Assembly (NCBI RefSeq): GCF_003612165.1
Contig: NZ_RAWK01000089.1
Location: 1 to 32,310, forward strand
Reading direction: 5' to 3'
DNA length: 32,310 nt
From: Corallococcus aberystwythensis
GTDB lineage: Bacteria > Myxococcota > Myxococcia > Myxococcales > Myxococcaceae
Below the pieces are notes generated by a model, which was not told the origin of the DNA, did no database searches, and saw only the letters and a list, made by a program, of their open reading frames with translations. Numbering within the stretch: position 1 is the stretch's first letter; every line of letters starts with the position of its first letter. Positions 17,641 to 17,726 of the stretch are shown in pieces. The position numbers and the translations under genes are program-made.

Positions 17641-17655
17641 CGTTCCGCCCCGGAA
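17641..17655. promoter_or_regulatory. palindrome GTTCC-gcccc-GGAAC (copy 1), upstream of the MVP gene
   Basis: Read directly from the sequence, 61-75 bp upstream of the MVP start codon in the divergent intergenic region. Confidence 0.4.
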
Positions 17656-17711
17656 CAGTCAGGCGCTGCGCCGGACTGGCGCGGACGCTCGCTCCATTCC
17701 GGTGCGTGCGC

Positions 17712-17726
17712 CGTTCCAGATTGGAA
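17712..17726. promoter_or_regulatory. palindrome GTTCC-agatt-GGAAC (copy 2; extended CGTTCCAgatTGGAACG)
   Basis: Same half-sites and the same 5-nt spacer as copy 1, with centres 71 bp apart. It lies about 95 bp upstream of the Cys-rich lipoprotein ATG at 17820. Confidence 0.4.

Follow-up and report, generated by a model that had tools for sequence, protein, structure and literature searches.

The window, by which we mean the whole stretch of DNA analysed, is an entire Corallococcus aberystwythensis contig of 32,310 bp with a G + C content of 69%. At the locus studied here two genes diverge:

15301-17580, minus strand: major vault protein (MVP) homolog, 759 aa, GTG start at 17580
17820-18569, plus strand: Cys-rich lipoprotein-like gene, 249 aa, with a lipoprotein-type N-terminus

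Both gene labels used in a preliminary description of this DNA were correct. The MVP homolog had Pfam matches to MVP_shoulder (3e-45), Vault, Vault_2, Vault_3 and Vault_4, and its start codon, either ATG or GTG, has a common position across species. The second protein is Cys-rich with a lipoprotein-like signal and gave no Pfam match. In the deposited annotation its start is ATG 17868 (233 aa, P0001). The longer start at ATG 17820 is more likely, because the homologs P0002-P0004 cover all 249 aa, including the hydrophobic signal and the Cys of a lipobox-like GVGC.

Elsewhere in the window, ~13 kb from MVP, there was a DUF6310 and DUF5953 gene pair (3229-4973). The same pair directly adjoins the lipoprotein gene in Corallococcus sp. 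CP114039 (L027:4620-6301), which points to a cassette here that is mobile or rearranges. The ORF at 8577-10202 carried a LysM domain and a T6SS VgrG3-like C-terminal (peptidoglycan hydrolase-like) domain, its product being a possible predation or competition effector. Downstream of MVP, a HmuY-like gene was conserved only within some Corallococcus species and gave no functional clue.

The divergent intergenic region measures 239 bp (17581-17819; ~240 bp in the preliminary description) and holds two palindromes matching GTTCC-N5-GGAAC exactly:

17642-17656: proximal dyad GTTCCgccccGGAAC
17713-17727: distal dyad GTTCCagattGGAAC

The two copies had been reported before, each placed 1 bp too far to the left. 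The distance of 71 bp between their centres (17649 and 17720) and the extended 7-bp arms of the distal dyad (CGTTCCA/TGGAACG, 17712-17728) were as described. The proximal dyad can be extended too, to TGACCGTTCCG-ccc-CGGAACAGTCA (17637-17661), with 11-nt arms complementary at 10 of 11 positions. The two dyads had also been called improbable by chance, and rightly so: two exact copies stand in a 32,310-bp window where 0.06 are expected, and in 100 shuffles that preserved the dinucleotides this number was never reached. With one mismatch allowed, a single additional match appeared (1976-1990, within a peptidase gene), which is chance level. A chance origin of the two exact dyads is excluded.

For comparison, a protein scan of species-representative genomes with MVP gave 25 loci (L001-L025), from Corallococcus, Hyalangium, Archangium, Vitiosangium and several MAGs. 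To these were added two further Corallococcus genomes, L026 and L027, which were reached through lipoprotein homologs and have MVP and the lipoprotein gene arranged as in the window. Among the Corallococcus sequences, ~200 bp upstream of MVP were conserved, from exactly the distal dyad (site A below) to the MVP start codon. Past this dyad the sequences bore no relation to each other, as species differ in the gene that lies upstream. The window, L026 and L027 share their gene order, and their entire intergenic region was 91% identical. Relative to L026 (L026:3389-3420) and L027, the window had an 11-bp deletion at 17724-17725 (TGGAAC[GCATTTCGAAC]GACC), which left site A intact and probably arose between short GAAC direct repeats.

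The most conserved part of the MVP upstream region was a block close to the gene, which we read as a promoter:

17636-17620, minus strand: predicted sigma-54 (-24/-12) promoter CGGCATGGGGCTGGCAA, called on cross-genus conservation and GG-N10-GC spacing
17581-17609, minus strand: predicted MVP 5' UTR, ~30 nt, with the ribosome-binding sequence GAGCAGGTG

The -24 GG lies at 17635/17634 and the -12 GC at 17623/17622 (minus strand), with 10 nt between the doublets. Of 28 sequences (the window and 27 related MVP loci), 26 had the pattern GGCA[CT][GA]-N3-[CT]T[CG]GCA at 56-73 nt before the MVP start codon, and these spanned at least four named genera (Corallococcus, Hyalangium, Archangium and Vitiosangium). 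The two exceptions were a Planctomycetota MAG and a truncated locus. When 16 sequences from several genera were aligned, GGCA..G.GGCT.GCA was invariant, and the mean column identity was 0.92 in the promoter vs 0.47 upstream of the dyads. The promoter of most relatives was GGCACGCGGCTCGCA, and that of L008, TGGCACGCGGCTCGCA, had one mismatch to the sigma-54 consensus TGGCACG-N4-TTGCA, given in full as yTGGCACGrnnnTTGCw (PMC12754779). The minus strand of the window reads CGGCATG-GGGC-TGGCA at 17636-17621. This has three mismatches (GGCATG, TGGCA) to the E. coli consensus and, taken alone, is a match at chance level, so that the promoter is called from its conservation and from the spacing GG-N10-GC. 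A plus-strand candidate, TTGGCC-N8-TTGCC (17606-17624), had the wrong spacing for a sigma-54 element; the actual element is on the minus strand.

At sigma-54 promoters, which depend on RpoN and an activator ATPase, transcription starts ~12 nt downstream of the GC. The predicted MVP transcription start is thereby ~17610 on the minus strand. The segment between this point and the gene was conserved in all myxobacterial loci, and is non-coding, since the indels there are not multiples of three. The AGGTG core of the ribosome-binding sequence (17589-17585) ends 4 nt before the start codon. From these sequence features we infer that MVP is transcribed from a sigma-54 promoter in vivo.

Anchoring all loci on the -24 element exposed repeated 17-bp dyads upstream of it. 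A PWM was trained on the relatives only, with the window left out. Its consensus was CGCTCCA-N3-TGGAGCG, and the information was concentrated at G2, C5, C6, A7 and their mirror positions. The window has four such sites:

17712-17728, centre 17720: site A (the distal dyad), CGTTCCA-gat-TGGAACG, a perfect 7+7 palindrome; 19.7 bits, predicted ~-110
17690-17706, centre 17698: site B, CGCTCCA-ttc-CGGTGCG; 17.7 bits, predicted ~-88
17667-17683, centre 17675: site C, TGCGCCG-gac-TGGCGCG; 16.2 bits, predicted ~-65
17641-17657, centre 17649: site D (the proximal dyad), CGTTCCG-ccc-CGGAACA; 10.5 bits, predicted ~-39

The centre spacings A-B, B-C and C-D are 22, 23 and 26 bp. Over the 32 kb window the PWM, which is partly circular because it was iteratively refined on the same upstream regions, gave five matches of at least 10 bits, all within 17649-17764, and three of at least 16 bits vs 0.08 expected. 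In the 110 bp preceding the -24 element the density of exact TCCA-N3-TGGA was 4.35 per kb, vs 0.014 per kb in the remaining 210 kb, a ~300-fold enrichment in loci that are phylogenetically related, so that the counts are not independent events. All myxobacterial loci except L025 and L022 had three to four sites. Their positions, counted from the GG, were conserved inside each of two groups, at -85/-63/-40/-14 in Corallococcus and at -94/-74/-51 in the other genera.

Site A was the strongest in the window. Its homologous position was occupied in essentially all Corallococcus loci and also in other genera, mostly spelled CTCCA...TGGAA/G. Core identity (CCA/TGG columns, 16 sequences) was 0.90 for site A, 0.79 for site B, where the TGGAGCG half was nearly invariant between genera, and 0.95 for site C, for which the sequences came from several genera. 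The cores of A-C, at 0.79-0.95, compare with 0.54-0.66 identity in the inter-site spacers. Site D, 6 bp from the -24 element, had a core identity of 0.68. Most Corallococcus species keep just its promoter-distal half (GTTCC in the MVP orientation), and in other genera its halves are ~10 bp further apart. The exact 5-N5-5 motif recurred at the two dyad positions only in L026, at the distal site, all other relatives having at least one mismatch at both positions. The GTTCC/GGAAC wording is a local spelling. The preliminary description had taken GTTCC-N5-GGAAC as the recognition unit and counted two sites. The conserved unit is instead 17 bp long, a 7-N3-7 dyad whose CCA/TGG core is invariant, and sites B and C, which had been missed, fit the consensus better than D. 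The reported pair consists of the strongest site (A) and the weakest and least conserved one (D). Conservation at MVP orthologs, proposed earlier as a check, was found at the distal position, where the site is kept, and was poor at the proximal one, where in most Corallococcus species one half is left.

The fifth PWM match was a candidate site E:

17756-17772, centre 17764: TGCTCCA-gac-AGGCACG, 14.5 bits

It is probably not functional, its TCCA half and the adjacent GG being lost in L026 and L027, the closest genomes with the same gene order.

A few irregular cases were seen among the relatives. In L024 (Corallococcus llansteffanensis) an insertion of ~1.3 kb lies inside the array (L024:2470-3916). 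It carries a 391-aa ORF (L024:2673-3848) with no Pfam match and is flanked by a ~55-bp duplication that takes in A, B and the left half of C. This genome also appears to have a broken MVP reading frame, and the locus may be decaying. A 17-mer, CGTTCCACGCTGGCGCG, with 15 PWM bits was found inside the GDSL-lipase coding region at L004:2071, L023:3074 and L024:758 and 1651. This single site, present in one Corallococcus subgroup, is probably conserved coding sequence and not regulatory.

Could the dyads be something other than protein-binding sites, either chance palindromes kept through recent ancestry, or RNA or DNA hairpins such as terminators or REP-like elements? Short GC-rich palindromes are common at 69% G + C, and in several genera there is only a short gap between the end of the upstream gene and the array. 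The excess of exact copies over the 0.06 expected and the ~300-fold enrichment of the motif speak against this, as do site positions that are conserved across genera with unalignable flanks. What is conserved is the sequence (CCA/TGG) and not the pairing, with a mean of 4.6-5.1 of 7 arm positions complementary. There is no T-run after either dyad and no other PWM copy in the window, and Rfam gave no match at E<=1. The conservation pattern already largely refutes this reading, which we hold to be extremely improbable. A separate, terminator-like hairpin, CGGGGTTTCTCCG and then TATTTGC (17739-17751, plus strand), lies between the divergent genes. It is kept in L026 and L027 and not outside these closest relatives.

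The array and the promoter belong to MVP, and the lipoprotein gene is a lineage-specific neighbour. Each myxobacterial lineage has the array and promoter at MVP, regardless of the upstream gene. The lipoprotein gene adjoins MVP only in the window, L026 and L027; in other Corallococcus species GDSL lipase, QRPTase or other genes lie beyond site A, and in several genera the upstream gene stops just before the array. In one Corallococcus subgroup a co-oriented GDSL lipase ends ~55 bp before site A, and in the window the lipoprotein gene is placed between that lipase and the array. The DNA beyond site A is a synteny breakpoint (window 17821-19531 compared with L004-L007, L023 and L024). Lipoprotein homologs in Myxococcus fulvus and Pyxidicoccus were not accompanied by MVP, and the 220 bp upstream of them gave no motif match of 9 bits or more. 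It is because the array follows MVP across changing neighbours, and because the unlinked lipoprotein homologs are motif-free, that we assign the sites to MVP. The earlier suggestion that they control one or both of the divergent genes is narrowed to one. The upstream regions of the Myxococcus and Pyxidicoccus lipoprotein genes share a different block, which contains CGTATCCA.

These findings bear on a more conventional explanation, in which the dyads are operators of a dimeric repressor or activator acting on sigma-70-type divergent promoters, for the lipoprotein gene, MVP or both. The dyads do lie within the 239-bp divergent region, with site A 100 bp upstream of the lipoprotein ATG, and the 91% identity among the three same-order genomes leaves room for co-option by the lipoprotein gene there. 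A myxobacterial enhancer-binding protein (bEBP), PexR, can also repress an overlapping sigma-A promoter (PMC12754779). Against this stands the age of the array, which predates the arrival of the lipoprotein gene and is kept beside the co-oriented GDSL lipase or other genes, as well as the lack of the motif at lipoprotein homologs away from MVP. A scan of 17400-18000 with E. coli consensus hexamers, which may miss myxobacterial promoters, detected no sigma-70-like promoter. A plus-strand sigma-54-like candidate for the lipoprotein gene, AGGCACGcgggGCGC (17765-17780), would, if real, make the array a shared bidirectional enhancer. It is not kept in L026 and L027, where GG is changed to GA, and by our estimate several matches of its quality are expected per window by chance, consensus-like matches being at chance level. 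Co-option of the array by the lipoprotein gene in the window lineage has no support, and we consider conventional operators quite unlikely.

The preliminary description had called the repeated dyad characteristic of a dimeric transcription-factor operator. The dyads are indeed non-random, and the distal one especially is a conserved dimer-type site. A classical operator is the part that did not hold: since the sites are upstream of a strongly conserved MVP sigma-54 promoter, they would rather be enhancer (UAS) sites for an ATP-dependent activator. The sigma-54 holoenzyme opens promoters only with an AAA+ enhancer-binding protein. Such a protein typically binds upstream dyad sites as dimers, which then form a hexamer (PMC5159524). 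Sites A-C have the features of a UAS, namely at least two tandem dyads of ~15-17 bp upstream of a sigma-54 promoter, and site D, at ~-39, is closer than usual.

Our preferred reading, which we consider probable, has MVP transcribed by sigma-54 under an unlinked activator, an NtrC-family bEBP whose UAS is formed by A-C. Dimers of this bEBP, encoded elsewhere in the genome, would bind the 17-bp dyads and, once activated by a signal, would form on A-C a hexameric ATPase that remodels the closed sigma-54 holoenzyme complex; MVP would be transcribed only upon that signal. Site D, weak and abutting the -24 element, may have low affinity and an auxiliary or limiting part, comparable to sites III-V of E. 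coli glnAp2. What kind of protein binds, which one it is and whether site D has a role are all inferred here from the DNA sequence.

We found no bEBP gene, as judged by GAFTGA or Walker motifs, either in the window itself or, at any locus, up to ~4 kb from MVP, and thus no candidate regulator. The motifs GAFTGA, ESELFGH and GESGTGKE were absent in all frames from the window and L001-L025. Pfam searches of 24 window ORFs returned only a LysR regulator and a cNMP-binding protein as regulators, both distant. Linkage of the bEBP gene is not a defining feature of UAS arrays.

The lack of a linked bEBP gene would also agree with a protein of another type on the dyads, such as a repressor, an anti-activator or an architectural protein, that tunes the sigma-54 promoter; the activating bEBP would then have its site elsewhere or need no contact with DNA. 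Some bEBPs indeed have no DNA-binding domain. Site D is unusually near the promoter for an activating site and poorly conserved, and a protein bound there, against the -24 element, could hinder the holoenzyme. A non-bEBP regulator on the dyads is possible, especially at site D. What weighs against it is the arrangement of three to four NtrC-format 17-bp dyads at a spacing of about two helical turns between -65 and -110, which is the canonical one for a bEBP. Moreover, conservation stops at site A, leaving no other conserved upstream element to serve as UAS. As an account of the array we find it unlikely, and continue with A-C as the UAS of an NtrC-family bEBP.

The architecture itself is a textbook bEBP enhancer, that is, an ordinary control region on an unusual gene. 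Neither this motif nor its association with a bacterial MVP homolog appears to have been described. Our literature search found a single paper on bacterial MVP homologs (bioRxiv 10.1101/872010), which contains nothing on regulation, and no paper joining major vault protein with myxobacteria. A conserved sigma-54 promoter with an enhancer motif would mean that MVP is switched on by a specific signal via an ATP-dependent activator. Its practical value is a handle on when, and via which signalling pathway, myxobacteria make their vault-protein homolog. Sites A-C can serve as DNA bait for the regulator, the motif together with the promoter pattern can lead to co-regulated genes, and a reporter can reveal the inducing condition.

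Among known systems, other NtrC-subfamily boxes have a CA-N3-TG core, for example TTGCA-N3-TGCAA of LuxO. LuxO-type boxes and the MVP motif share this CA-N3-TG centre and the dyad symmetry, which fits a Fis-type helix-turn-helix dimer. The outer half-site bases differ, making the resemblance a lead only. The E. coli NtrC box TGCACCAnnnTGGTGCA has the same 17-bp 7-N3-7 format as the array motif (TGCACCA-N3-TGGTGCA; PMC8743547). The two have G2, C3, C5, C6 and A7 in common, 5 of 7 half-site positions, and differ at positions 1 and 4. The window's own sites match the NtrC box at only ~4 of 7 positions per half; exact TGGTGCA half-sites were present in L008, L010 and L011.

The glnAp2 promoter has an NtrC enhancer site at -108 and low-affinity sites at -89, -66 and -45 (PMC5159524), and the predicted -110/-88/-65/-39 of the MVP array run closely parallel to these. 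In both, tandem sites ~21-32 bp apart extend nearly to -24, strong distally and weaker proximally. The glnAp2 site at -140 has no counterpart in Corallococcus, and the gene downstream is one of nitrogen assimilation at glnAp2 and an MVP homolog here. Because myxobacteria have dozens of NtrC-like activators, the protein that would bind the MVP array need not be the NtrC ortholog. That MVP belongs to the regulon of the NtrC ortholog, or of a close NtrC-like starvation-responsive two-component activator, is a tentative idea that we regard as rather doubtful. If true, the bacterial MVP would be made only under nitrogen or nutrient limitation, from a glnAp2-like enhancer with site D as a low-affinity 'governor' site, and an unexplained bacterial vault-like protein would be tied to a defined signal. 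This would fit an old proposal that vaults are amino-acid or nucleotide stores (cited in 10.1101/872010).

The other close parallel is the bEBP PexR of Myxococcus xanthus, which at the sigma-54 katB promoter binds upstream to three interrupted palindromes in tandem (PMC12754779). At katB and ahpC its UAS also includes weaker pseudopalindromes and the sigma-54 promoter is validated; the dimeric protein oligomerises stepwise, and three sites suffice for binding (PMC12754779). The PexR motif, CACCG-n6-CGGTG, is unlike that of the MVP array in sequence and spacer, and pexR adjoins its target ahpC, whereas MVP has no bEBP gene near it. The two systems share the same bacterial order and the same layout, with tandem dyads directly upstream of a sigma-54 promoter, predicted in the case of MVP.
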